Source: a virus
Reading direction: 5' to 3' (one strand)
Length of the DNA stretch: 36,745 nt
IMG/VR virus record: IMGVR_UViG_3300045988_158810
The translations under genes and the position numbers were made by a program. The notes beneath the pieces were generated by a model. The model was not told the DNA's origin. It was given only the letters and a program-made list of their open reading frames with translations, and did not search any database. This document shows positions 1,968-15,148 of the stretch, piece by piece; position 1 is the stretch's first letter; every line of letters starts with the position of its first letter.

Positions 1968-2115
1968 TTGGTGCAGAATGGTGCAGTTTTTTAGGCTAAG
2001 TGACTGAAAACAGGGCATAAGGCGCTAAATAGACTGTCCCAGGAAAGGAATACGTATTTAGCGCAAATTCAATAACTTACAACACGTCCTGCACCATAAG
2101 TATGGTGCAGGCCGG
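1968..2115. promoter_or_regulatory. candidate attP / Int arm-site region (GGTGCAG repeats and palindromes)
   Basis: Tandem tggtgcagaa/tggtgcagtt at ~1970-1989. A perfect palindrome cctgcaccataagtatggtgcagg at ~2088-2112. A second inverted repeat ggcgctaaata…tatttagcgc at ~2020-2066. All lie directly downstream of int. Confidence 0.4.
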
Positions 2116-2132
2116 AAAAGGCCGCCGCATAG

Positions 2133-2167
2133 AGCCCCGAAAGATAGTTCCTTTCGGGGCTTTTCTT
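2133..2167 (+). terminator. rho-independent terminator (possibly bidirectional, between convergent int and late operons)
   Basis: An 11-bp stem agccccgaaag / ctttcggggct with a 7-nt loop, followed by TTTCTT. Confidence 0.65.
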
Positions 2168-2169
2168 GT

Positions 2170-2277
2170 CTACTCGTCAGCGTCAAGCATTGCCTGCACG
2201 GCCGCTCTCCAGCGGGTGGGAACCTCGTCAATTGTCATACGGCCCGTTTTGATCATCCTGTAGTAAATCTTAGCCAT
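2170..2277 (-). CDS. XkdX-like small phage protein (35 aa)
   Basis: MAKIYYRMIKTGRMTIDEVPTRWRAAVQAMLDADE. Its size, position at the 3' end of the tail-fibre module and the pattern ..Y..g..T.deVP..W…V… match XkdX-family mini-proteins. Its start overlaps the Tfa stop by 8 nt. Confidence 0.45.
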   Translation of the reverse strand: MAKIYYRMIKTGRMTIDEVPTRWRAAVQAMLDADE

Positions 2278-2788
2278 TTTTCGCCTCCAGTTTGGCAATC
2301 CGCTGTTCAAGTTCAGCCGCATAGGCGGCAAGGTCAAGGGCGGCCGCGTCCGATTCTTCTTTGTCGGAGGCGGAAGTCATGCCCAGCTCCGCAACTGCCG
2401 CCTCAAGGTCGGGCACTCGGGCCGCCTCGGCCTCTGCCTGTTTGCGCCGTTCTTCTTCAGCGGCCTTTTCTTCTGCTGTCTGCTCGGGGCGCGTCAGCGA
2501 TGCTCCTTCAGGGAGCGGCCCCAACTCCTTCATCTCCACGGGGGAGCTGTTGTACGGTGCCCTTTTCGGCCAATACCGGGCTCCCCGGTGATCTTCTGTC
2601 TCAATCCACCCGAATCCGTTCCAGACGGCAATGTAGCCAGTGCGTTTTGCCGGAGGCTCTGTGAATGTGGCGTTAGCCGGAAGAAGGTACACTTCACGCC
2701 CTTCCATCCGAGACCTTACGGGGTCAGGGAAGCATGGTACCGGTTCAAGGAACTCATGCGTAGTTGTTGAATACATGTATGCTTGCAT
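2270..2788 (-). CDS. tfa: tail fibre assembly protein (Tfa / Caudo_TAP-like chaperone)
   Basis: LLPANATFTEPP…GYIAVWNGFGWIETEDHRGARYW matches the conserved core of caudoviral tail-fibre assembly proteins. It sits immediately downstream of a tail-fibre gene. Confidence 0.7.
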   Translation of the reverse strand: MQAYMYSTTTHEFLEPVPCFPDPVRSRMEGREVYLLPANATFTEPPAKRTGYIAVWNGFGWIETEDHRGARYWPKRAPYNSSPVEMKELGPLPEGASLTRPEQTAEEKAAEEERRKQAEAEAARVPDLEAAVAELGMTSASDKEESDAAALDLAAYAAELEQRIAKLEAKNG

Positions 2789-2796
2789 TAGGCCTC

Positions 2797-3486
2797 CTAT
2801 TCATACCGAATGCAGGGGAGAAGGCAGAGGGCCGGCGGCTGTACCGTATTAGAATTGCCGTAAATTGAGTTGTAACTACTCGCTCTAAATGTGAACGCAC
2901 CACCGGAAGTTGCGCCTGAATTGTTCGTCAACTGTGCAGGCGTTCTATAAGAATTGTGTTGTTGTTTAAGCGTCATCGCACCAGACGTACCTTGTATAAT
3001 ATTTGCCTGTTCTGCGCCGTGCAGGGTAAAATCGCCTTGTATATCGGGCGCCCCTGCGTCAATGGCTGTGCCTACAGACGTAGATCCCCACGGGACCTTG
3101 CCCATCAGGTTGGGCAATAAGAATATGTCTGGATCGCTATATCGCGGATCTTCGATTTTGAGGCTCTCATCAAGGTATCGTGGCGTAAAAGTCTTCCCAA
3201 TTGCGGCGAATAGAGCGACGTAATTAGATGTGCCCACGGCAGCGCCGTTGCAGACCAGCCACCCCTCCGGAGGCGTGAACATAGCAAACCAGCGGATCTC
3301 ACCGATGACCGCTCCACGCCGCAATGAGTTGTCTGCGCTGTCGAGGGCGTCACACTTGTTTTTAAGCGCGGCCATCACTGACCGGATAGCGTTGTTAATG
3401 TTTTTGGCCGGGCAGTGCTCGGCAATATTGATGCCGTCAACCGTGGTATTTTCGTCGGCAACGGCCGACCAATCGGATACACTCAT
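2797..3486 (-). CDS. tail fibre protein B (phage tail collar domain)
   Basis: Conserved fibre N-terminus MSVSDWSAVADENTTVDGINIAEHCPAKNINNAIR. Collar-domain motif GEIRWFAMFTPPEGWLVCNGAAVGTSNYVALFAAIGKTF. Its N-terminus is paralogous to ORF 4716..5372. Confidence 0.75.
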   Translation of the reverse strand: MSVSDWSAVADENTTVDGINIAEHCPAKNINNAIRSVMAALKNKCDALDSADNSLRRGAVIGEIRWFAMFTPPEGWLVCNGAAVGTSNYVALFAAIGKTFTPRYLDESLKIEDPRYSDPDIFLLPNLMGKVPWGSTSVGTAIDAGAPDIQGDFTLHGAEQANIIQGTSGAMTLKQQHNSYRTPAQLTNNSGATSGGAFTFRASSYNSIYGNSNTVQPPALCLLPCIRYE

Positions 3487-3737
3487 CTTTCCGCCTCCGG
3501 TAATTGTGTCCGGCTCTTTTCACTCTCATACGCTTTCCGGCAATGCTCGCTCTGCCAGAAGAGGAGCCCGTCAATCATTCTGCGTGGCCACTCTCGGGCA
3601 CCGTCCACATGCCAGCGCCACGCATGGGCGGACAGGGTTTCATCGGCCCACGCCTTCTCACAGAAACAGCATGACACGAAGACATTTCCCAGTTGGTCAA
3701 GCGCAATAGCCAGCTGATGAAGGTTATGCCGTAACAT
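3483..3737 (-). CDS. hypothetical Cys/His/Trp-rich small protein in the tail-fibre module
   Basis: Internal Met start giving a 14-nt overlap with the upstream gene; its stop overlaps the fibre B start (ATGA). Contains CCFCEKAWADE…HAWRWH. Function unknown. Confidence 0.35.
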   Translation of the reverse strand: MLRHNLHQLAIALDQLGNVFVSCCFCEKAWADETLSAHAWRWHVDGAREWPRRMIDGLLFWQSEHCRKAYESEKSRTQLPEAER

Positions 3738-4371
3738 CTGCGTAGCTGATAACAATAGCATCCACCTCTTCTTTGGTCTTGCATGCTTCAATCTGGGAAC
3801 GCAGGGCCCACTTCCTAGCGTACAGATTGTTTCCGTAGCTGATGAGCTCCAGCTGGATTGTTTTCAGCTGTTCAAGCGTCATATTGATCAGCTGATTGTC
3901 ATAAGTCATGAACCCGACCACCTCACGCCCCGTAGCCGTCATCGCCGTAATCAGGCCGTCTACATTCTGTTTAGCTGTGGTGTTGGCATTGACCGTGTAG
4001 CCGGTGGAAGACTTGATACTCACAGAAGAAGAAACTTTGGCCTCTTCCATGGCACGGTTGAGCTCAGCCAGCTTGCGGGCCTTCACGTTTTCAAGTTTGT
4101 TGTACTCGGATTCCTGTTCGGCTTTTTCAGCCTCCCGTTTCGCCTTTTCCGTCTCCCAGAACTGCACATAGGGGGCAACGGCGCGGTCATAGTCGGCCGC
4201 CGTGAGAGGCTCACCCGTGAAGCCGTCCAGCTCAAGTGTTCCGCTTCCCTCATGCCACTGAATGGCGTGTACTTTTTCGTGTCCAGCTACGGGCGGAAAC
4301 TTGAACTGCATAGGGACCCCGCCCACGGAGATAACGCCATCTCCGGGAATTACCGTGACATGTTCTTCCAT
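3724..4371 (-). CDS. tail-fibre-associated protein (possible DUF4376-like fibre chaperone)
   Basis: Position between the two fibre genes. C-terminal helical segment DNQLINMTLEQLKTIQLELISYGNNLYARKWALRSQIEACKTKEEVDAI resembles fibre-assembly-associated domains. Coiled-coil middle region. Confidence 0.4.
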   Translation of the reverse strand: MEEHVTVIPGDGVISVGGVPMQFKFPPVAGHEKVHAIQWHEGSGTLELDGFTGEPLTAADYDRAVAPYVQFWETEKAKREAEKAEQESEYNKLENVKARKLAELNRAMEEAKVSSSVSIKSSTGYTVNANTTAKQNVDGLITAMTATGREVVGFMTYDNQLINMTLEQLKTIQLELISYGNNLYARKWALRSQIEACKTKEEVDAIVISYADVTA

Positions 4372-4374
4372 TTT

Positions 4375-4716
4375 TTACCCCTTTATTGCCTTCATTGTGT
4401 TTGTGTGATTAGCCTGCACGAGGCGGGGCTTCCCGCTGGCGAGCGTATAGAACTGCTCCCGCAGGGCACGGCCCTCTTCGATGTTTTCACATCGCGCGGC
4501 GCTCACCTCGGCCCCCACCTTGGAGATTTCCCCGGCAAGCATGCCGGTGACATTCGCCTGCTCCATTAGGAGCATGGGAGTGAGTGTAAAAGCGCACCCC
4601 TCAAAGGAGGCGTTCACACTGTCCTTGCTCCCGCTGTAGCTCATCCAGAGTTCGCACCCGCCGTTTTTGTTGTGCTCGGGGCACTCGCCAAAATTCCTGA
4701 AAGGGCATCCCGCCAT
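4375..4716 (-). CDS. hypothetical Cys-rich protein downstream of fibre A
   Basis: 113 aa with five Cys in the first 45 residues (CPFRNFGECPEHNKNGGCELW…GCAF). Its start overlaps the fibre A stop (4716). Confidence 0.4.
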   Translation of the reverse strand: MAGCPFRNFGECPEHNKNGGCELWMSYSGSKDSVNASFEGCAFTLTPMLLMEQANVTGMLAGEISKVGAEVSAARCENIEEGRALREQFYTLASGKPRLVQANHTNTMKAIKG

Positions 4717-5372
4717 TACACTCTCTCCGCTAAAATAGTATCAAGATAGTTCACGTTGAAGTCTATGCTATGGGCATGGGCGTTGTTCCATGTCCCGTGC
4801 CCATGGGAGCCGTTGCCGCCGTTCCAGCCCACGGCATCCCCGTAGTAGTTGCCGGAGCCGTTCTGCCCACCATAACGGGCCACGGCCCACGCGTCCCAGC
4901 CGCCGCCGCCAGCGTCGACAAAGAGTTCCCAGAGGCCGTGAGTGTGGGACGGGATTTGTGCGAGAGAAAGCGTTGTTTCATAAACGCCCATAGAGATACT
5001 GTTGCTTGTGGTTCCTCTGCCAGCCGTAAAGCACTCCGTGAACGTTCTTCCTGTTGTCCTGTTCCCGGGCGTTCCGGACGTCAGCCGCAGTGCGCAGTTG
5101 TCATAATCGGTAATTTTCTTCCATCCGGAGGGCGCGGCTCCCTGCTGGAAGAACATGCGGCATCCGGAAGGAAAATATTTATCGAAGTTAGTTTGCGCGC
5201 TGGAAACGGCCGCCGCAATATCAGCGGTTACATCCTCACGATACGCGGCGAGGTCCGCCATGAGTTGGCGGATAGCGTTGTTGACATTGGACGGAAGACA
5301 CCCTTCCGCTACGTTAATACCGCTGATGCTGGTGTTGTTGTCGGCCGTTGTGCTGTAGTCTGATACGGGCAT
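4716..5372 (-). CDS. tail fibre protein A (paralogue of fibre B with a different C-terminal domain)
   Basis: N-terminus MPVSDYSTTADNNTSISGINVAEGCLPSNVNNAIRQLMADL aligns to fibre B's N-terminus. Gly/Trp/His-rich C-terminus (GGGGWDAW…GWNGGNGSHGHGTWNN). Follows the large virion proteins. Confidence 0.7.
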   Translation of the reverse strand: MPVSDYSTTADNNTSISGINVAEGCLPSNVNNAIRQLMADLAAYREDVTADIAAAVSSAQTNFDKYFPSGCRMFFQQGAAPSGWKKITDYDNCALRLTSGTPGNRTTGRTFTECFTAGRGTTSNSISMGVYETTLSLAQIPSHTHGLWELFVDAGGGGWDAWAVARYGGQNGSGNYYGDAVGWNGGNGSHGHGTWNNAHAHSIDFNVNYLDTILAERV

Positions 5373-7712
5373 TTACTTCTCCTTCTTCTTCTTGCCTTGC
5401 CGCATATACCCGAGAAGCCCGCCGCCGGCGGCTCCCCTTGCCATGTTCTCCGTGGTTCTCCGGAGATAGGGCCCCGCGTCAGGGTATTCCAGTCTGTGGG
5501 GAGCTGCATTCCGCATAAGGTTCACGCCGTACATGGGAGACAGAAGCCCGCGTTCTACTTCATCGAAAACAGCGGTGTTGCGGTTGTCAAGAAGACGGTC
5601 AATTGACGGGCCGATAAGCGGAATTTTTGAAAATGTCGGGGCGATTGTATTCCCCAGGCGCCCCTGTCCGTACAGGTTGCGGGCGGTAGGCGAACCGACA
5701 GTTGCGCCGAGCTGGTCATTGCGGGCAACGCGGCTCATATCAGCCTGAAGGTTCCGCAGGTTGTCGTACTCTTCCGGGGTAAACGCAGAGGTGCCGTTCT
5801 CATAAGGGCTGCGTTCAGCCGTCCCGAGGTCAACGCCTCTCTGGAGGGCGTAATTGTCGCCGCTCTTGCGCAGCGTCTGCCTGAACGCGGCCTCGCGGCC
5901 ATTCAGGTCGCGCCCGGCGGTCTCTATCGCCTGCAAATCCCTGTCCACTTCCGGCATATACCGGAGCGCGTTTTCGTAGTTTTGGCGGAACCGCGCAAGG
6001 TTATTCGGGCTGATATTCCCGTTCTTGTCGATTGCGGCGCCGCGGGCAAGGTTCTGTACGTAGCCGGTAATCGCGTTCCTGGCTTCGGTGTCATCATAAA
6101 ACGCCCGCCCAAAAGCGTCCATAGATTCACTCCCGGCAGGCCCTTTCCGGAAGTAATTCCCCGGGATTGCGGAAGTGTCGATTGCGCCGCCGTACAGCTT
6201 ACTGCCTTTGCGGGACATGGGCAGGTTTGCCCCCTGCTCGAAGTTTTCGCCGAGCGCGCGGCGGTTCATGCGTGCGGTCAAAAGATTCTGCACCCCTTCA
6301 GGGGTAAGGCCGGAGGCAGCGTTAAGTTCTGCCGGGGCCCCGCTTGCCTCCTTTATATAGTCGTCGATATTGCGCTTCATCATATCGGCAATCCGGCCAG
6401 TCTTCCGGTCGCCTGACACGGCCGACTGATAGCCAAGGTCGCCGAGCTCGGAGCGCATTGCCTGAAGGTCGCGCCATGTGGCGGGGGTGCCGGTTTGGGC
6501 GTAAGCATCAACTGTCCGGTAGAAATTCTTGGCCTGAGCGGGCATAAGGTCACGTTCGATAGGGGACGTCCCCAACGAAGCATTGAACTTATCAAGAAGG
6601 GGGCCAAGCGAGAACCGGGCCGTCCCCTCGGGGTCTACGGCCTGATAATCGCGGTTCACGCCTTCACGTGCCGCCTGATAGTTCTGATCGTAGCGTTCGC
6701 GCAGTATAGGGCCTGCCTCACTGGCGCCCATGCCCGCTGGCATTTTGTCCGTGAGCGCCTGCCTGTCAGTTTCCAGACGGGACGCGGCCGCATCGCCAAC
6801 TTCATTTGCGAGGGCTTGTTGGGCTTCACGCTGCTGTATCCTGCGGTCAGAGAACTTACCAGAATTCACGCCGCGGCTTGCGGCGATTTTTTCAAGGGCG
6901 GAAATGCCGCCGTTGTTGGCAACCTGCCCCAGAGTAGGATCGCTTCCCGGGATAAGCGGCCCAAGGGCGGCATTGTCCATACCGGAAACCTGCCCGGCAT
7001 ACGGGCCCGCGGCGTCATTGAGCACCCGGCCGGCAATCGCCCGGCGCCCGCTGTCCGTGAAGGTGCGGGCAATATCGCGCACGTCCCCGAGGGGCGCGGC
7101 GAGAGAGATTGCCCCCAGACGGGCCGCCGGAGCGGCGAACACGGGAAGAAGACCACCCGCCACGCCGGCCGCAGCTCTCATGCCGGGGGAAGCGTCATTC
7201 TGGGTGGCGAGTTCAGAAGCCGCACCGGCACCGGCACCGCTTGCCATCTGCATACGCGGGGCATCTGTCAGGAAGCGGGAAAGCGCTGGTGCGGCTTGGG
7301 ACAGGGCCTTGCCGGCCTTAAAAGCACTGTTGAGCATTCCGGCGGGCGTACCCATTTCTATTGCGCCGGTGCCCGCCGCATGGGCCATCTTCTCTTCGTT
7401 GCTTTCCGGATTGGGCAGCCCAAGAGCATTCGCAACATCCACGCCGGGGTTACGGAACCGTTCATAGTTGCCTGTAAGCAGGCCGCTTCCGAGATTTGCA
7501 AGATAGTTGGGAAGCCCCGTAACACCGCCAAGCAGGCCCTCAATACCCGTGCGGGCCGCCAGCCCGGCAAACCGCTTCAGGCCTGTTGCGGGCTGTTGGG
7601 CGGCAGAACCGGAAGCCCCCACGTGCTGTTTCACGACTTTTAGAATTGTGTCGCTGGGCGTGCCGTCGGGAAACTGAATTGTATCCCCGTTGGGGAGATC
7701 AACAGTCGTCAT
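5373..7712 (-). CDS. large virion/internal (ejection-type) protein, Ala/Gly-rich (779 aa)
   Basis: Position in the morphogenesis operon directly upstream of the fibres. Low-complexity A/G-rich composition typical of podoviral internal/ejection proteins. No enzymatic motif recognised. Confidence 0.5.
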   Translation of the reverse strand: MTTVDLPNGDTIQFPDGTPSDTILKVVKQHVGASGSAAQQPATGLKRFAGLAARTGIEGLLGGVTGLPNYLANLGSGLLTGNYERFRNPGVDVANALGLPNPESNEEKMAHAAGTGAIEMGTPAGMLNSAFKAGKALSQAAPALSRFLTDAPRMQMASGAGAGAASELATQNDASPGMRAAAGVAGGLLPVFAAPAARLGAISLAAPLGDVRDIARTFTDSGRRAIAGRVLNDAAGPYAGQVSGMDNAALGPLIPGSDPTLGQVANNGGISALEKIAASRGVNSGKFSDRRIQQREAQQALANEVGDAAASRLETDRQALTDKMPAGMGASEAGPILRERYDQNYQAAREGVNRDYQAVDPEGTARFSLGPLLDKFNASLGTSPIERDLMPAQAKNFYRTVDAYAQTGTPATWRDLQAMRSELGDLGYQSAVSGDRKTGRIADMMKRNIDDYIKEASGAPAELNAASGLTPEGVQNLLTARMNRRALGENFEQGANLPMSRKGSKLYGGAIDTSAIPGNYFRKGPAGSESMDAFGRAFYDDTEARNAITGYVQNLARGAAIDKNGNISPNNLARFRQNYENALRYMPEVDRDLQAIETAGRDLNGREAAFRQTLRKSGDNYALQRGVDLGTAERSPYENGTSAFTPEEYDNLRNLQADMSRVARNDQLGATVGSPTARNLYGQGRLGNTIAPTFSKIPLIGPSIDRLLDNRNTAVFDEVERGLLSPMYGVNLMRNAAPHRLEYPDAGPYLRRTTENMARGAAGGGLLGYMRQGKKKKEK

Positions 7713-9506
7713 TTAGTTCTCCAGAAGCTTTTTGGTTGCTGGGTCATAGCGGTAATGGCGTCCGCCTGAAGGAGCGGCGGCGGCGGGATTGGCGTTAGTT
7801 CTGGTAACGCGCTCCGGAGCGGGGGGAACTACAGAAGGGAGTGTCTTGCTGTACTTTTCCCACGCCTGCATAGCCGCGAACCGATCACCACCATTTTTGC
7901 GCATCTGGTCAAGCAGAAACAAATCCATCTCTTTGCCGCGGGTCGCGATGTTAAGCATATAATTGGCCATCCAATCATTGCCTGCAGGGGAATTCTCAAG
8001 GCTCGCAAACGTTTTTTTGGCACGTTCGGCGTCACCTTCTGTCTGCACACCTTTTTGTTCCATAAGAACGTTAAGCACGTTTTTGTTAACTAAATAGTTG
8101 AGGGCGTCAGCATCCCGGACATCGTTAGCGCCGATAAAGTTCCCCGAGAACCCTATTTTATGCAGGAACTGATTGACGAGGTCTATTTTATCCTGCAATG
8201 GGCCGGATTTTAAGTTGGGGAGCAGGGATTTTAGCGTTTCGACATTTGTTATCATATCGTTTTTCGCGGATACGTCGCTAATGAGACTATCGTAAAAATC
8301 AGCGCTTTTTTCTGCCAATTTCTGATTAAACATGTATCCAGGGCTGGCTTTAGCCCGCTCGAAATCGAATTTTTCTCTATCGAGAGCGTTCTTTTCCTGC
8401 TGCTGCTGGAGGCCGGCAACACGTCCGGCCGCCGCGCCGTAATCTCCGGGTAAAGACGCGGCCGCCATAATATTAGGCGAGACGCCGCCCGTTCCGCCGC
8501 TGTACGGCGTGCCGGTTGCGCCCTGTGCCTGCTGGCCCCCGCGGTAGTCCACAGACTTATAACCCGCCGGAACGGGTTTCAGCCCAACGGCCATGTCAAA
8601 TTCATCAGCCGGAACGTACTTGTAGGAGCCTTCATTTTTGGTGATTGCCTGCATCAGCCTTTTCATCGTCTGCGGGTCGTTGAGATTAAGCGGCTGATTG
8701 GGATCAACGCCCATCATGGCCGCCGTATCCTTGATGAGAGCGGAAGTGTCGTTCTCGTTGGACGGGCTCCAGCGGGAGATGATAGCGGCTACAGTTGGAT
8801 TTTTCGCATAGGCGGGAGAAAGGAGGTTGGCGCGCATGCCTTTGAGGCCGTCAAGAATGGTAGGATACACGCGTATCTGGTCTTCGTAGTTCCCTACGTT
8901 GCCGGGGTTGTTGGTTATAGCCGCCTTGTCGAGCGGCGCGCCGTCAGGTCCCGCCGGACGCTGGCTTTTAGGCGGGAGTGTGCTTGCGGGCATTGTCGGC
9001 CCGTCAGGGATACGGGGTATTTTCAGGGGGTCCATATCGGCGCCCTGCCCGCTTCCGCCTGTAAGACCGGGGAGCCCCATCAGTCTGCCCCACATATCCC
9101 GGTCCGCGGCTTCGCGCTGTGCCTTTTGCTGGGCAATGCCCAATCTCTGCTGGTTAAGCTGAAGATTCCCAAGAGATATTGCGTTGGCAAGCCCCCTGTC
9201 TTCTCGGGACGCCTCCCACTGCGCACGGGCTAAAGCGTCCTGTGCGGCCACGCGGTCACGCTGGAGGCCGTACATTCCGGCGTTGCCAAGAGCGCCTAAA
9301 GCATCCAGTCCGCCGCGGCCAAGGAGCTGCCCGAAACTTCTTCTGCCGTTATTATTGGCAAGCATGGACAGGGCCGTTACCCCTGCAAGGAAGCCGGGGT
9401 TGCCGGAAACGACATCAGCCATGGACATGTTCTTGGGGGCGGGCTGTCCGCCCCACATGCCGAGAAGGCCGCCCGGCGTCTGTCCGTTATCGTATGGGTA
9501 CGCCAT
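7713..9506 (-). CDS. large virion/internal (ejection-type) protein (597 aa)
   Basis: Translationally coupled (TAATG) to its neighbours. Gly-rich N-terminus and coiled-coil segment. The conserved-looking block AITNNPGNVGNYEDQIRVYPTILDGLKGMRANLLSP has unknown function. Confidence 0.5.
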   Translation of the reverse strand: MAYPYDNGQTPGGLLGMWGGQPAPKNMSMADVVSGNPGFLAGVTALSMLANNNGRRSFGQLLGRGGLDALGALGNAGMYGLQRDRVAAQDALARAQWEASREDRGLANAISLGNLQLNQQRLGIAQQKAQREAADRDMWGRLMGLPGLTGGSGQGADMDPLKIPRIPDGPTMPASTLPPKSQRPAGPDGAPLDKAAITNNPGNVGNYEDQIRVYPTILDGLKGMRANLLSPAYAKNPTVAAIISRWSPSNENDTSALIKDTAAMMGVDPNQPLNLNDPQTMKRLMQAITKNEGSYKYVPADEFDMAVGLKPVPAGYKSVDYRGGQQAQGATGTPYSGGTGGVSPNIMAAASLPGDYGAAAGRVAGLQQQQEKNALDREKFDFERAKASPGYMFNQKLAEKSADFYDSLISDVSAKNDMITNVETLKSLLPNLKSGPLQDKIDLVNQFLHKIGFSGNFIGANDVRDADALNYLVNKNVLNVLMEQKGVQTEGDAERAKKTFASLENSPAGNDWMANYMLNIATRGKEMDLFLLDQMRKNGGDRFAAMQAWEKYSKTLPSVVPPAPERVTRTNANPAAAAPSGGRHYRYDPATKKLLEN

Positions 9507-10357
9507 TACTTGCCGCCTCCCTTTCCGCCGCTGTCTGTCTCGGTAGTGCTCTCACCCTGCCCGCCGTAGGAGCCGCCAACAAGATTAAGATAGTTCTGCA
9601 GGGCTGTCATATCCCGCTGCTGATTATAGTTCCAACGGTCAACGTCGGCATCAACTCTGCTCTGGTTGTAGTCGTCGAGCGAAGAACCCGCCTGAGCCAG
9701 CTGCGCCGCATCCGTATATGCCTGATTGCTCAGAGACTGTGCGGGGCTTGCCGCGGCAATCTGGGAGTTCACGCCCTGATTGTAGGCGTTCGCGGCATTG
9801 CCCGCCGCGCTCACGGCCTGATTGTAGGCGTTGCTGTACATTTCGTTAGCCAGGTTCTGGTCAGCGTCCGCAACAGCGTTAGCCTGCGCGCCGCTCCCGA
9901 ACCGGCCCGCCTGAGAGAAATTTCCATTAATTGCCGCGTTCGCTTTATCAGCCGCATGGTCGTAAAGGCTGTCTATGTACGGGTTCGTAGACTGCGCGTA
10001 CTGATTGAGCGCGTTAAGCCCCGTGTTGCCAGCCATAGCCGAGCCGTTCAGTATGTTAGCCATACTGGAAGCGGCATTGTCGATATTCGCGTCACCGCCC
10101 GTTGCGCGGGCGTTAATCATGTCGCGGGCTGTAGTCGTGTACCCCGATTCATCCGCTACCGTAGAATTAGGGTAGTAATCACCTGCGAGGCCGCCCGACT
10201 CATAGAGCCGCGCCGCTTCGGGGAATACGCCTTTGACTTCTACACCCTGAGAATTTTTGCCCCCGATAAGATAGGGGATTTGGGCCCCCCAAGGGGCCGC
10301 ACTGCTGGTGGTGGTGGATTCTCCACCGCCGCCTTTTCCGCCTCCGCCGCCACCCAT
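9506..10357 (-). CDS. virion internal protein, Gly-rich termini (283 aa)
   Basis: Begins MGGGGGGKGGGG and ends GGKGGGK. N/A/Q-rich helical middle. Lies within the structural operon. Confidence 0.45.
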   Translation of the reverse strand: MGGGGGGKGGGGESTTTSSAAPWGAQIPYLIGGKNSQGVEVKGVFPEAARLYESGGLAGDYYPNSTVADESGYTTTARDMINARATGGDANIDNAASSMANILNGSAMAGNTGLNALNQYAQSTNPYIDSLYDHAADKANAAINGNFSQAGRFGSGAQANAVADADQNLANEMYSNAYNQAVSAAGNAANAYNQGVNSQIAAASPAQSLSNQAYTDAAQLAQAGSSLDDYNQSRVDADVDRWNYNQQRDMTALQNYLNLVGGSYGGQGESTTETDSGGKGGGK

Positions 10358-11819: not shown

Positions 11820-12122
11820 CTAACTTCCGAAGATCAGCCACGCCCAGGAACCCGTGCCGGCGCCGGAAATGGTAAAAGTCATTTCCCCGCGGGTCATTAA
11901 AGAAAGGTGCCATTTCATGCCCGCCGCGTCCGCGTTGAGAGGGACGAGCATCGCCACACGACCGGCACGGCACCGCGGATCCCTGACTGTCTTATCACCG
12001 GCGCCAGCCGTGAAAGAGCCCGTATTGAGCGTTTCACCGGCGATAGCGCCGTTAACCGTGAGCGCTAAGGCCGTCATCTGTTCGGGTGTAGCCTTCGGGT
12101 AAACAGCAACCTGCCTCGCCAT
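11820..12122 (-). CDS. small virion protein (100 aa)
   Basis: ORF in the structural operon, coupled to the 494-aa gene. Confidence 0.4.
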   Translation of the reverse strand: MARQVAVYPKATPEQMTALALTVNGAIAGETLNTGSFTAGAGDKTVRDPRCRAGRVAMLVPLNADAAGMKWHLSLMTRGEMTFTISGAGTGSWAWLIFGS

Positions 12123-13606
12123 TACATTCCCCCTTCAGGCTCTATCAGAGCCTCTACCCCGTGAGCGTCACGCCATGCCGTACCGCCGCCCGGTATAACT
12201 ATACGTGCTAACAGATAGTTGGTGCTGATATGCTGGTAACATACGCCGTCCCTGCTTTGTGAACGGAGAGGCCCGTATTTCGGCTGCTCCTGCTGTCTCG
12301 TTCTGTATATGGGAAGCGCTTTTGCGTCTCCGCGGTCCACGAGCGGGCGCAGGCCGTGAACCATCATGCGGTCACCGCCGATTTCCTGTGTCTCTATGAC
12401 TGCTTCAAGCGGTTTCCCATTCAGGACGCCCATGTACCCTTCAGAATCGAAGCACCCCATCAGAGAACGGCCGGGCATGAATGCCGGTACGTCCAGCGAA
12501 CCAAAGGGGAGCGCGTCCAGTGTGCCGTATTTATCGAGGTCATCAAGCATTTCGCCGCGGGCGTAATCGCCGAAAAGTGTTTGGACAGAAATGACACCGT
12601 ATGACCACTTATCGAGGTCGTAGGAATAGATCAGCACTCTGTCCAGTACGCCGGCTTCCGCCACTTTGGAGGGGAACGCCCAGATGCAGATACGGTTTAC
12701 AGGGTCATGCCAGCCGGTGATTTCGGAAATTCGGGTATGTTCAACCTGCGAGAAGAACCACGTATCGATACGCTCATTTCCGAGGGCCTTAGTGGAAGTC
12801 CCGTCCGTGATGTACCAGCCATCATCAGAAAGGTAGATGCACCCCACACCAAAGTTGACGGGGCTTTTGGGTGCAAGGAGCCCGCGCACGGCGTCAATCT
12901 GTTTGAAGTTGAAAATATAGGGCGGCCCTACGTAGGCCATACGCTGAACAGCACGTTCAAGGAAAACAAGGCCGTCAGTCTGTCCTACGGCGCCCATAAC
13001 GGCCATAACACGGCCGCCTTCCGGGAAATGCTGATAGTCTGACTGCTTCGCGGCGGCGTCATCGGTGCCGGGCTCCGGCCACGTGTCGGGGTCATCCATA
13101 GCTGACCACTGGATGCGCTGCCTGTTGCCCGTCAGGTCACCGAGTACAAGAAATTCCTTCACAATGGCCATGCATTGGGCTGTCGGCGCGTTCGAGACAG
13201 CGGAAAAATCCCCGAACCCGCCCGAGACGGTGGACTTATATAAGCTCGTCCCGTAGAGCATATACAGAGACGGGCCCCAGTTTGCGAAAACGCGGTTGGT
13301 GCTGACTGTCTCCGTGGTGAGCTTGGCAACCCATTCACCGCCCTGCAGGGCGTACACGGGGCCGGTGGAAGAAGCGGCGAGCGTAAGCAGGTCTCCGTTG
13401 ACGTCGCGGAGCGTACAGGCCGCAAGGCACCGCCCGCCCGGAAGCTGGGGAAAAGAGAGGCGGGACACGCCCGGCAGGTATCTGTACCCGCGCTTGCCTG
13501 GGATGACATTGCGGGCTTCCGGAGCCTGCTGGCCGTTGAGAAGCACATCGTCCGGTTCCCACGCCCCGAATTGCAGGAGAACCTTTTTAGCCTGGCTACT
13601 ACTCAC
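12122..13606 (-). CDS. tail hub/tubular-type structural protein (494 aa)
   Basis: Size and position relative to the portal, capsid and ejection-protein genes resemble P22 gp10-like or podoviral tail tube proteins. No motif-level support. Confidence 0.4.
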   Translation of the reverse strand: MSSSQAKKVLLQFGAWEPDDVLLNGQQAPEARNVIPGKRGYRYLPGVSRLSFPQLPGGRCLAACTLRDVNGDLLTLAASSTGPVYALQGGEWVAKLTTETVSTNRVFANWGPSLYMLYGTSLYKSTVSGGFGDFSAVSNAPTAQCMAIVKEFLVLGDLTGNRQRIQWSAMDDPDTWPEPGTDDAAAKQSDYQHFPEGGRVMAVMGAVGQTDGLVFLERAVQRMAYVGPPYIFNFKQIDAVRGLLAPKSPVNFGVGCIYLSDDGWYITDGTSTKALGNERIDTWFFSQVEHTRISEITGWHDPVNRICIWAFPSKVAEAGVLDRVLIYSYDLDKWSYGVISVQTLFGDYARGEMLDDLDKYGTLDALPFGSLDVPAFMPGRSLMGCFDSEGYMGVLNGKPLEAVIETQEIGGDRMMVHGLRPLVDRGDAKALPIYRTRQQEQPKYGPLRSQSRDGVCYQHISTNYLLARIVIPGGGTAWRDAHGVEALIEPEGGM

Positions 13607-14122
13607 TCAATATCCCCCCCCCGTCTGTTGCGAAAATGTACCGGTGCGCACCCATACGCCGGCGGGGCGCTCATCTTCCGTCCACACACCCGCAGCACGG
13701 TCTTCCGGAGACCATGCCCAGCCGCGGAAGGTGAAGCGCAGCTGCTGTCCCGTTCCCCAGTCATCAGGGCAGGCAAAAAAACGAACCCTGATATAACTGA
13801 AGGTTTCGCCGCTTATGGCCTCAGCTGTTCCCGCATACACAAGACCGCGTCTGTAGGTGAGATTGCCGCCTGACAGAATGGCACAGGGTGAAACAGCGTC
13901 GCCGGGCACCCACGCCCTGCGAACGAAGAACCCGCCGCCAGTCTGTGCATGCCCTTCAGGGGCATACCGTCTTGCGCGTACAAGCCTCCCATCCTCCCCC
14001 GATACGGCATTGAGCACGGCGGCATCTCCGGCGATATAAGAATCGTCCAGTGAGACGGTTCCCATCCCGTCTATGTCCGCTCCAAAAAGGCGGTCAAAAT
14101 CGTCAAGGGTGAAGTCGCGCAT
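13607..14122 (-). CDS. structural protein (171 aa from the internal Met start)
   Basis: An internal ATG forms an ATGA overlap with the upstream gene's stop at 14122. The track ORF extends to 14212 but would overlap the upstream gene by 91 nt. Confidence 0.4.
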   Translation of the reverse strand: MRDFTLDDFDRLFGADIDGMGTVSLDDSYIAGDAAVLNAVSGEDGRLVRARRYAPEGHAQTGGGFFVRRAWVPGDAVSPCAILSGGNLTYRRGLVYAGTAEAISGETFSYIRVRFFACPDDWGTGQQLRFTFRGWAWSPEDRAAGVWTEDERPAGVWVRTGTFSQQTGGGY

Positions 14123-14496
14123 CAGTCTATGGTGAGCTTCAGGTCGCCGGCATGCACAATAATTGTGTCGTTGGCTGATAATTCTTTTGCCGTGGACAGG
14201 GAGCCGTACCACACAAGGTTTCCGCCCGTAGCGGCGTCATACACGCCCCACGCAACCACCGTTCCCCACCCTGCCGTAGCCGTTGGGAACTCGATAGCGG
14301 CGGCGTTGGTCATACTGGAAGGGGCGCCAGATACCGGCACCGCAAATGTAATAGCCTGTCTGGCATACGCGCCGCCGCTCACTTCCGTTCCGGCAGAACT
14401 GTCAGTGGGCGCAGCAGTCAGCACGCCGAGGTAGTATGTCTTGGCACTTTTGACCAACCCGAGCACATACGTTTCACCGTAATTCGTCAGGCTCAT
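14122..14496 (-). CDS. small structural protein (124 aa)
   Basis: MSLTNYGETYVLGLVKS…, a Gly/Ala/Thr-rich beta-type protein in the head-tail joining region. Confidence 0.45.
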   Translation of the reverse strand: MSLTNYGETYVLGLVKSAKTYYLGVLTAAPTDSSAGTEVSGGAYARQAITFAVPVSGAPSSMTNAAAIEFPTATAGWGTVVAWGVYDAATGGNLVWYGSLSTAKELSANDTIIVHAGDLKLTID

Positions 14497-14497
14497 T

Positions 14498-15148
14498 TTA
14501 TGTCCTCCTCATGGGCCGCATGCTAATATCTTTAGGGTAGCGGGCCTGCGTCTCCTGCTGGCTGATGTCCGCCACGGCCTGCCTGTAATACTGAGCCCAC
14601 ATGTCAACCGGCACGCTCCCGCGGGTAAAAACCGCGGATTCCACGAGCGAGCCGTAAAGGTACAGGTCAGGATGCCGCAGCAGGATTTCATTATCAGGCT
14701 GTTCATCCCCGAGCGGGGGAATTTCCGCGTAGTAGGTCAGCTGGAGCTTGCCCGCCTGATCAGGCGTTGGCAAAACGAACAAGTCATTGGCTTCGATGGT
14801 GAAACAGTACGGCCGGCCCGTCTTCTCCAGTAAAAGCGCGTATTCGTCGGGAGAGGCATACCACAGATTAACGCTTCCGTTCCCGTCGGGGGGCGTCCAG
14901 ACAATATCCCTCATCTCAAGAAACACGTCCCACTGCCCGGGCACCCGCTTCATCGGGAGGGGCATTTGGCCCTGTCCTTTAGGAAGAGAGGCGTGCGCCC
15001 TGTGCTCCATCGCCCTAAGGCGCAGTGTCCGGTTCCCGCGCTGTTCCCACAGACGGATGAATACGGGGATACGGTCAGACAGATCCTCGCGCCCGAGGTA
15101 GTCGGCAATCGCCGCCTTCAGGCCCTCATAAGTTGTCAGATCAGCCAT
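14498..15148 (-). CDS. head-tail adaptor/connector-type protein (216 aa)
   Basis: Position after the capsid gene. N-terminus MADLTTYEGLKAAIADYLGREDLSDRIPVFIRLWEQ resembles phage adaptor or head-completion proteins. Confidence 0.45.
   Translation of the reverse strand: MADLTTYEGLKAAIADYLGREDLSDRIPVFIRLWEQRGNRTLRLRAMEHRAHASLPKGQGQMPLPMKRVPGQWDVFLEMRDIVWTPPDGNGSVNLWYASPDEYALLLEKTGRPYCFTIEANDLFVLPTPDQAGKLQLTYYAEIPPLGDEQPDNEILLRHPDLYLYGSLVESAVFTRGSVPVDMWAQYYRQAVADISQQETQARYPKDISMRPMRRT

Follow-up and report, generated by a model that had tools for sequence, protein, structure and literature searches.

Phages SP6 and K1-5 bear two tailspikes on one short tail, carried by a separate adaptor protein. 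The fibres of Mu, P1 and P2 combine a constant N-terminal part with exchangeable tips, each accompanied by its own assembly protein, and in Mu the tips are switched by inversion of the G segment. Collar-domain and HxH metal-binding tips are known from gp12 and gp37 of T4, a phage with the chaperones gp57A and gp38. Here, we analyzed two short tail-fibre genes, named fibre A and fibre B, between positions 2797 and 5372 of the IMG/VR virus record IMGVR_UViG_3300045988_158810, a stretch of 36,745 nucleotides (nt) that is called the window below. An earlier note, made by a model from the letters of this stretch, had proposed that the two form a constitutive dual receptor-binding set, and this is what the locus looks like, considering that both genes belong to one coupled operon and that the layout recurs in 21 dual loci. 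We consider it likely that positions 2170–5372 hold a co-expressed dual receptor-binding arrangement at the distal end of the virion operon.

The window fibres also consist of a constant N-terminus and an exchangeable tip with its own assembly protein, as in Mu, P1 and P2. Unlike in Mu, no invertase (among the reading frames scanned), flanking inverted repeats or opposed orientation were found in the window; each fibre is a complete gene, and both are probably expressed. The resemblance to T4 appears to lie in the tips, since fibre B has a Collar domain with a weak match to gp12 and fibre A has three HxH motifs like those of the metal-binding tips of gp12 and gp37. However, the window fibres are much shorter, and they belong to another virion type with other chaperones.

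Pa223, a Pseudomonas podophage (Bruynoghevirus), carries six gp60 trimers, each attached to a single hub loop, and gp60 was likened at its tip to T4 gp37 (bioRxiv 10.1101/2025.06.11.659172). In the comparison with gp60 and the hub gp59 (9NXK, 9NWI), residues ~32–195 of gp60 were homologous to fibre A, and gp60 is well conserved among close relatives, as is fibre A. In contrast, one tail-hub fibre gene was modelled in Pa223, besides a tail needle and a capsid spike, and the extreme N-terminus of gp60 did not match the anchor of the window fibres, the alignment starting at profile position 36. The myovirus V22 and the schitovirus A5 share a fibre and DUF4376 chaperone pair (PMC7289586, PMC10579305). 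The fibre A cassette likewise spans morphologies, occurring in the window, in a P2-like myovirus contig (L003) and in the contigs L047 and L049; the fibre tips of V22 and A5 are different, however, neither a 113-amino-acid (aa) cysteine protein nor an 84-aa protein was described for them, and it is in V22 and A5 that chaperone dependence was tested. Ralstonia phage GP4 has three fibre types (Zheng et al. 2023, as described in PMC11445570). Like GP4, SP6 and K1-5, the window phage would constitutively bear more than one receptor-binding protein on a short tail, and it has a homologue of GP4 gp80. In GP4, a 15-copy immunoglobulin (Ig)-like adapter ring carries the fibres, whereas the window fibres have their own paralogous anchors.

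The cultured Paracoccus phage vB_PmaP_KLEP18-1 is colinear with the window (adaptor, nozzle, small genes, three large internal or ejection proteins, fibres). Its gp22, annotated as 'putative tail fiber protein', starts with the same anchor module (E = 1e-23). Unlike in the window, the anchor occurs on gp22 only, and the tips are unrelated to those of A and B.

Two Fibre Genes with a Common N-Terminus

The two fibre genes and their parts lie as follows.

4716–5372, minus strand: fibre A, an open reading frame (ORF) of 218 aa, matching phrog_5795 'tail protein'
5238–5372, minus strand: position-1 anchor module of fibre A, residues 1–45, MPVSDYSTTADNNTSISGINVAEGCLPSNVNNAIRQLMADLAAYR, from BLASTP and family hhalign
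2797–3486, minus strand: fibre B, an ORF of 229 aa with PF07484 Collar
3352–3486, minus strand: position-2 anchor module of fibre B, residues 1–45, MSVSDWSAVADENTTVDGINIAEHCPAKNINNAIRSVMAALKNKC, from BLASTP and family hhalign
2887–3039, minus strand: hypervariable stretch of fibre B, about residues 150–200, from the family alignment

Fibres A and B were 38% identical across 84 aa (BLASTP, E = 4e-13), and the A-family and B-family alignments matched with 98% probability (hhalign, E = 2e-13) over columns 1–90 only. The shared N-terminus claimed in the earlier note is thus far above chance. The common part takes in the ~45 N-terminal residues and a helical neck and, from the next domain, its first strand and a P-x-G-W motif; this motif opens a collar-type domain at residue 84 of A and residue 76 of B. 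Beyond residue ~90, neither BLASTP nor profile–profile comparison detected any similarity between A and B. The statement that the fibres diverge completely after the N-terminus therefore holds past residue ~90, but some similarity is still seen in the neck and in the strand and P-x-G-W motif with which the next domain begins. The DNA of this shared part was only ~60% identical between the two genes, and no long direct repeats occurred in the window DNA. A recent duplication of the fibre gene, a possibility raised before, was rejected on these grounds, and the sequences point to an old paralogy that has been kept at the protein level.

Using the 45-aa anchor of fibre B as query, we retrieved 1,147 representatives of 50%-identity clusters. 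The module stood at residues 1–45 in nearly all of the 150 matches listed, whose lengths ranged from 48 to 641 aa, and the tips joined to it include collar domains and pectate-lyase-like spikes, among many others. It was also present in fibre genes of cultured phages with 33–43-kilobase (kb) genomes, the hosts being Paracoccus, Pelagibacter, Microcystis, Rhizobium and a Methylophilales strain. Searches of the anchor against PDB and Pfam gave only spurious matches (designed Kelch repeats) and a sub-threshold capsid family. The shared N-terminal module is most likely a tail anchor.

Two-Position Layout in Related Phages

Related loci from metagenomes and IMG/VR were mapped by profile searches. 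Two anchor-bearing genes were found in 21 dual loci (20 related contigs and the window). The anchors were 86% identical within position 1 and 79% within position 2, while the identity between positions was 55% (maximum 66%). The anchor variant was tied to gene position, whichever tip was attached to it: of the 21 loci, 17 have the A tip at position 1 and 4 have another tip there; at position 2, the B tip is present in 13 and a different tip in the remaining 8. Judging from these sequences, tip cassettes have been exchanged in both positions, a point that the earlier note had proposed to check among relatives. The main argument follows from this: both positions take exchanged tips and yet the anchors stay distinct, so the two anchors do not appear to be interchangeable. 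More distant relatives with at least 10 kb of flanking sequence (L026, L028, L034 and L038–L040) have a single anchor-bearing gene.

In three related contigs (L001 9891–11422, L018 9959–11233 and L023 10001–11492), the second fibre position is split into separate genes. A conserved stand-alone 63-aa ORF, made of the anchor module and a tail ...DIDAAYDALETEYKANGGTL, is followed by two or three tip genes of ~150 aa and Gp10_C type, each with a similar starting helix, which suggests that the anchor can serve as a separate adaptor protein. The first of these tip genes contains a G-run: G9 and in frame in L018 (~10310), G8 and out of frame in L001 (~10200), and 4 nt shorter in L023 (~10310). This difference could represent phase variation or a homopolymer assembly error.

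Megablast of positions 2000–9600 against GenBank phages gave no match, and no locus was confirmed in the GTDB species-representative genomes with the 283-aa ejection protein and the B-family alignment as queries. The host was only hinted at, by one metagenome-assembled genome labelled 'Desulfovibrio sp.' and by human-gut sample names.

Tips of the Two Fibres

Fibre A is built of the anchor module, the helical neck and a tip domain with three HxH motifs (SHTHG 141–145, SHGHG 189–193 and AHAHS 198–202). Residues P81, G83, W84, H143 and H145 are invariant in the A family, and a variable stretch lies between the first and second motifs (about residues 146–181). The A-family profile matched PDB 9qgo_A, the C-terminal host-binding part of Photorhabdus Pvc13 (E = 2.8e-17, profile positions 51–214), and 9nxk_A, the 215-aa Pa223 gp60 (E = 9.3e-7, profile positions 36–192); both entries were deposited as three chains. 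By these matches, the A tip is homologous to fibre tips of the Pa223 gp60 and Pvc13 type. Fibre A did not match Pfam PF07484 Collar at the cut-off of 24 bits, and 6 of 50 A-family relatives matched it weakly (best E = 5e-5). AlphaFold2 monomer models from the family alignments reached a mean predicted local distance difference test (pLDDT) score of 60 for A and 46 for B, with the tips below 50, as would be expected for intertwined trimers modelled as monomers.

Fibre B consists of the anchor module, the neck, a tail-collar domain, a hypervariable insert and a conserved C-terminal strand. The collar domain named in the earlier note was well supported, PF07484 matching residues 62–100 with 46.3 bits (cut-off 24, E = 4e-12). 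Fibre B also matched 16 PHROG tail-fibre families, and in PDB its family matched 8hqz_d, from a deposit entitled 'L-shaped tail fiber assembly' (E = 2.4e-7), and T4 gp12 weakly. It has more than 100 full-length relatives of 60–87% identity, in which residues 1–150 and 203–229 are nearly invariant, while residues ~150–200 are hypervariable, with insertions and deletions. The fraction of the majority residue was 0.00–0.50 in the hypervariable blocks versus 0.8–1.0 elsewhere. When clustered at 90% identity, fibre B fell into a cluster of 3 members, compared with 285 for fibre A, 238 for the 113-aa protein, 290 for the Tfa-like protein and 367 for the nozzle. Moreover, mean pairwise identity among 13 complete dual loci was 0.83 for A and 0.66 for B. 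Because of this small cluster and low identity, fibre B would be the fast-evolving specificity determinant, and fibre A the comparatively conserved fibre.

Operon Structure and Helper Genes

Seven tightly packed minus-strand ORFs lie between 5372 and 2170, all of them present at the coordinates stated for them. Besides the two fibre genes, the operon end contains the following features.

4375–4716, minus strand: 113-aa accessory protein with 4 conserved cysteines, from the ORF and gene neighbourhood
3724–4371, minus strand: 215-aa DUF4376 protein (PF14301; phrog_1348)
3483–3737, minus strand: 84-aa Trp/His/Cys-rich accessory protein with an ATG start (phrog_3342)
2270–2788, minus strand: 172-aa Tfa-like protein (phrog_105; phrog_1807)
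2170–2277, minus strand: 35-aa mini-gene MAKIYYRMIKTGRMTIDEVPTRWRAAVQAMLDADE of the CD1375 family (NCBIfam NF040910)
2131–2163, no strand assigned: GC-rich hairpin of 13 pairs directly 3' of the last gene, likely the end of the late operon

All gene junctions overlap or leave a gap of at most 8 nt, and most genes are preceded by GGAG-type ribosome-binding sites. The site is weak at the start of the 84-aa gene, for which an alternative TTG start at 3791 would yield 102 aa. Fibre B starts with a 4-nt overlap with the upstream gene and a strong ribosome-binding site. The mini-gene had been listed as a 55-aa ORF (2170–2337); gene calls in L004–L006 give a real product of 35 aa. Fibres A and B are complete genes on the same, minus strand and belong to one translationally coupled operon.

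Among the helpers of fibre A, the 215-aa protein matched PF14301 DUF4376 (58.2 bits, cut-off 25, residues 96–206) and phrog_1348. Two members of the DUF4376 family, gp27 of Alteromonas phage V22 and gp9 of phage A5, act as fibre chaperones; gp27 is essential for active fibres in V22, while the A5 fibre folds without its chaperone (PMC7289586, PMC10579305). By analogy, the 215-aa protein is probably an intermolecular chaperone of fibre A. The position of its gene after A-type tips is conserved, but in 7 loci (L004–L006 and L010–L012 among them) the C-terminal half has been swapped for PF16778 Phage_tail_APC, the N-terminal ~75 aa being kept. The 84-aa protein belongs to phrog_3342 (E = 6e-16), whose function is unannotated, and matched no Pfam or NCBIfam family. 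Its gene accompanies the DUF4376 version in most loci and is absent in L013, L017 and all APC-type loci; a 61-aa homologue occurs in the SU10-like phage L047.

The 113-aa protein has five conserved residues (C4, C12, C21, C41 and H15) and matched nothing in Pfam, PHROG or NCBIfam. Its family is small, with 42 clusters, all of ~110–120 aa, and it is present after every A-type tip, in podovirus and myovirus contexts. An A-type tip followed by a ~115-aa cysteine protein and a DUF4376 protein was found in L003, in L047 (fibre of 441 aa) and in L049 (fibre of 382 aa). One may speculate that the 113-aa protein is linked to the HxH metal sites of the A tip. In L003 (7372–9246), three tandem A-type tip genes (208, 208 and 204 aa) with a different N-terminus are followed by a single helper set of 118 aa, 214 aa (DUF4376) and 92 aa, and this one set appears to serve the three paralogous fibres.

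On the side of fibre B, the 172-aa protein matched phrog_105 'tail fiber assembly' (E = 7e-12), phrog_7290 (E = 6e-7) and phrog_1807, and no Pfam family at E ≤ 10, PF02413 Caudo_TAP included. Neither this protein nor the 215-aa protein gave anything meaningful against PDB. The 172-aa Tfa-like protein is probably the chaperone of fibre B, judging from its sequence relatives. Its gene follows the B-type fibre in every dual locus whose contig extends that far. Where another tip occupies position 2, in L021, the C-terminal half of the Tfa-like gene was kept and the N-terminal half changed. The siphovirus Ralstonia phage Dina has a comparable pair in gp38 and gp39, a B-like fibre and a 'tail fiber assembly' protein. 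The 35-aa product, described in the earlier note as XkdX-like, had no match to Pfam PF09693 Phage_XkdX at E ≤ 10; it belongs instead to the CD1375 family (NF040910, 49.5 bits, cut-off 22.5, E = 2.6e-13), residues 1–33 covering the 34 profile positions almost entirely. CD1375 is a family of small proteins of unannotated function, and the mini-gene is conserved as the last gene of the B cassette in every complete dual locus. In L021 and L022 (9022–9519), the first fibre gene is separated from its chaperone gene by an unusual passenger, the gene of a P-loop protein of 165 aa (motif GIPASGKST).

Together with their tips, the helper genes also occur in myoviruses, siphoviruses and other podoviruses. 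The idea that each tip has its own helpers is thus borne out, since they move with it between unrelated virion types. As for all of them being dedicated chaperones, this fits the 215-aa (DUF4376) and 172-aa (Tfa-like) proteins, but the 113-aa and 84-aa proteins are without family support and the latter is dispensable in some relatives.

Phage Type

The window makes up nearly all of a viral contig of ~37 kb. Matches of the SU10/GP4 type were strong in it (PF23899, E = 1e-144; PF17236, E = 3e-88; PF24175, E = 4e-26; PF23140, GP4 gp80, E = 1e-32). The window encodes an SU10-type portal, capsid and adaptor, an S24 repressor, replication genes and a terminase, and the tyrosine integrase at 942–1967 (PF00589) was the only recombinase among the ORFs scanned. 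A 494-aa protein (12122–13606) was homologous to the PDB 'nozzle gp16' chains (8zkk/8zkm) and to the 513-aa six-copy chain 9nwi_Y (E = 1e-6), which we take to be the Pa223 hub since its length and copy number fit the preprint. No tube or sheath family was revealed by the family scans among the ORFs covered. The sole tape-measure match, phrog_2276, fell on a 597-aa internal protein and was one of five overlapping families at residues ~123–308, the others including endolysin and injection transglycosylase. By these matches, the phage is a temperate SU10/GP4-like podophage without a baseplate. It follows that the label 'baseplate attachment', given to the shared N-terminus in the earlier note, cannot be right; in a virion with SU10-type portal, capsid, adaptor and nozzle, it should read tail anchor.

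Three neighbouring observations are added. A 124-aa protein (14122–14496, minus strand), whose gene adjoins that of the SU10-type adaptor (14498–15148), is the one that matched PF23140 'Podophage GP4 fiber I protein gp80'; it also matched PDB 8jou_a (E = 1e-3) and may be a third fibre-like component besides A and B. Directly upstream of fibre A, a 779-aa protein (5373–7712, minus strand) without family match is presumably an internal or ejection protein, and its homologue has 900 aa in L001 and 494 aa in L004 and L005, which are otherwise close relatives. No transfer RNA (tRNA) gene that could serve as attachment site was found in the window, and no search was made for attachment-site repeats near the integrase.

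Proposed Mechanism and Alternative Explanations

We propose that the phage produces both tail fibres, which are short and probably trimeric, side by side during each lytic cycle, and that both would enter the virion. In each, the ~45-aa N-terminal anchor would fix the fibre to the tail, in the nozzle/adaptor region, and would be followed by a short helical neck and a C-terminal receptor-binding tip. Because one anchor variant is always on the first gene and the other always on the second, the two would probably dock at non-equivalent sites. The A tip would be of the conserved HxH type, and the B tip a collar domain with a ~50-aa hypervariable insert. Each tip would bring its own folding helpers, namely the four-cysteine 113-aa protein, the DUF4376 chaperone and the optional 84-aa protein for A, and the Tfa-like and CD1375 mini-protein for B, and tip and helpers would move between phages as one cassette. 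The earlier note had suggested either two receptors or two hosts; of these, the contrast between a conserved A and a hypervariable B would speak for two receptors with divided roles, and it suggests that one of them is common and the other strain-specific.

Several points weigh against this. A hub of the Pa223 type has one attachment loop per subunit and no obvious place for a second set of fibres; position-specific conservation favours two sockets, but the single loop argues the opposite. The anchor is without a solved or curated relative, so its docking partner is a guess. The poor monomer models mean that the folds of A and B are taken from homology, and the roles of the 113-aa and 84-aa proteins are read from gene neighbourhood. 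A bolder version would see the two anchors as a fixed pair of sockets for plug-in tip cassettes, one conserved and one hypervariable fibre, the 113-aa protein as a new assembly factor of HxH tips (for example, a metal-delivering co-chaperone acting with DUF4376), and the anchor of the split variant as a free-standing adaptor; we offer it tentatively and regard it as unlikely in full.

The one-loop hub would suit a virion in which A and B compete for the same six docking sites, giving a random mix on each particle or a mixed burst, and hence bet-hedging. The A and B anchors are clearly homologous, and the more distant relatives manage with a single anchor-bearing gene. On the other hand, the anchors are distinct and position-tied across the 21 loci (55% between positions versus 79–86% within them), and binding to the same site would predict gene conversion or free swapping between positions, none of which was seen; we hold such competition to be rather unlikely. 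Branched fibres, with one fibre on the tail and the other hanging on it, have precedents in the anchor-branch depolymerase sets of Klebsiella phages and in LtfA/LtfB of T5-like phages, and the second fibre of KLEP18-1, gp23, is without anchor and must attach otherwise, possibly to gp22. For the window, however, a branched fibre is improbable: A and B each carry the full anchor at residues 1–45, in phages with a single fibre this module is the sole anchor, and neither of these very short proteins (218 and 229 aa) has an extra domain on which a second fibre could branch off. Alternatively, one of the two, most likely B, could be a collar-domain accessory or lysogenic-conversion gene (a 'moron') gained beside the integrase and not a virion fibre. 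Fibre B does lie at the operon end beside the integrase, the GC content is slightly lower at 2–4 kb (54% versus ~58–60%), and one source labels it 'microcystin-dependent protein'. Yet B has the fibre anchor module, a 4-nt overlap with the upstream gene, a strong ribosome-binding site and a Tfa-like gene next to it; invariant blocks enclose its hypervariable insert, as is typical of receptor-binding proteins; and B keeps the same position in 13 loci, with relatives in cultured phages annotated as tail fibres. A non-virion role seems at least as improbable as branching, and perhaps slightly more so.

A genetic switch (inversion, phase variation or a diversity-generating retroelement), by which one fibre would be made at a time or a tip actively mutated, was the least credible of these explanations and is very improbable here. 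It could draw on the hypervariable stretches in both tips and on the three related contigs in which the second position is split and the first tip gene is toggled by the G8/G9 run. In the window, by contrast, both fibre genes are intact, they share a strand and their translation is coupled, and only short, imperfect inverted repeats occur, none of them flanking the fibre genes. Family scans of the named and large ORFs, which did not cover every small ORF, found no serine invertase of the Gin/Cin/Hin type and no reverse transcriptase. The window contains no further copy of either hypervariable stretch that could act as template repeat, and both stretches vary by insertions and deletions, unlike adenine-directed mutagenesis. 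By eye, with no dedicated scan, no homopolymer tract was noticed in either fibre gene. Accordingly, a switch of the Mu G-segment type was rejected (same strand, complete genes, no inverted repeats, no invertase), as the earlier note had already concluded, and so was a diversity-generating retroelement (no template repeat, no reverse transcriptase in the scanned ORFs).

Implications

Podophages with several fibres, short fibres of the gp60 type, collar fibres, Tfa and DUF4376 chaperones, and cassette exchange between virion types were all known already; what is modestly new is the 113-aa protein and the anchor, which is uncurated and comes in two position-specific variants. A co-expressed pair of fibres would be a fairly ordinary way to recognize two surface structures, and the locus adds an example rather than a principle. 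Nevertheless, a very widespread, uncurated fibre anchor of ~45 aa is now described. A single lineage of temperate podophages, uncultured and in part from human-gut samples, keeps two position-specific variants of this anchor, one with a conserved and the other with a hypervariable tip. The four-cysteine 113-aa protein stands out as a clean candidate for a fibre-assembly factor of a new kind, and the complete cassettes of tip and helpers could be of use in engineering host range or predicting receptors.

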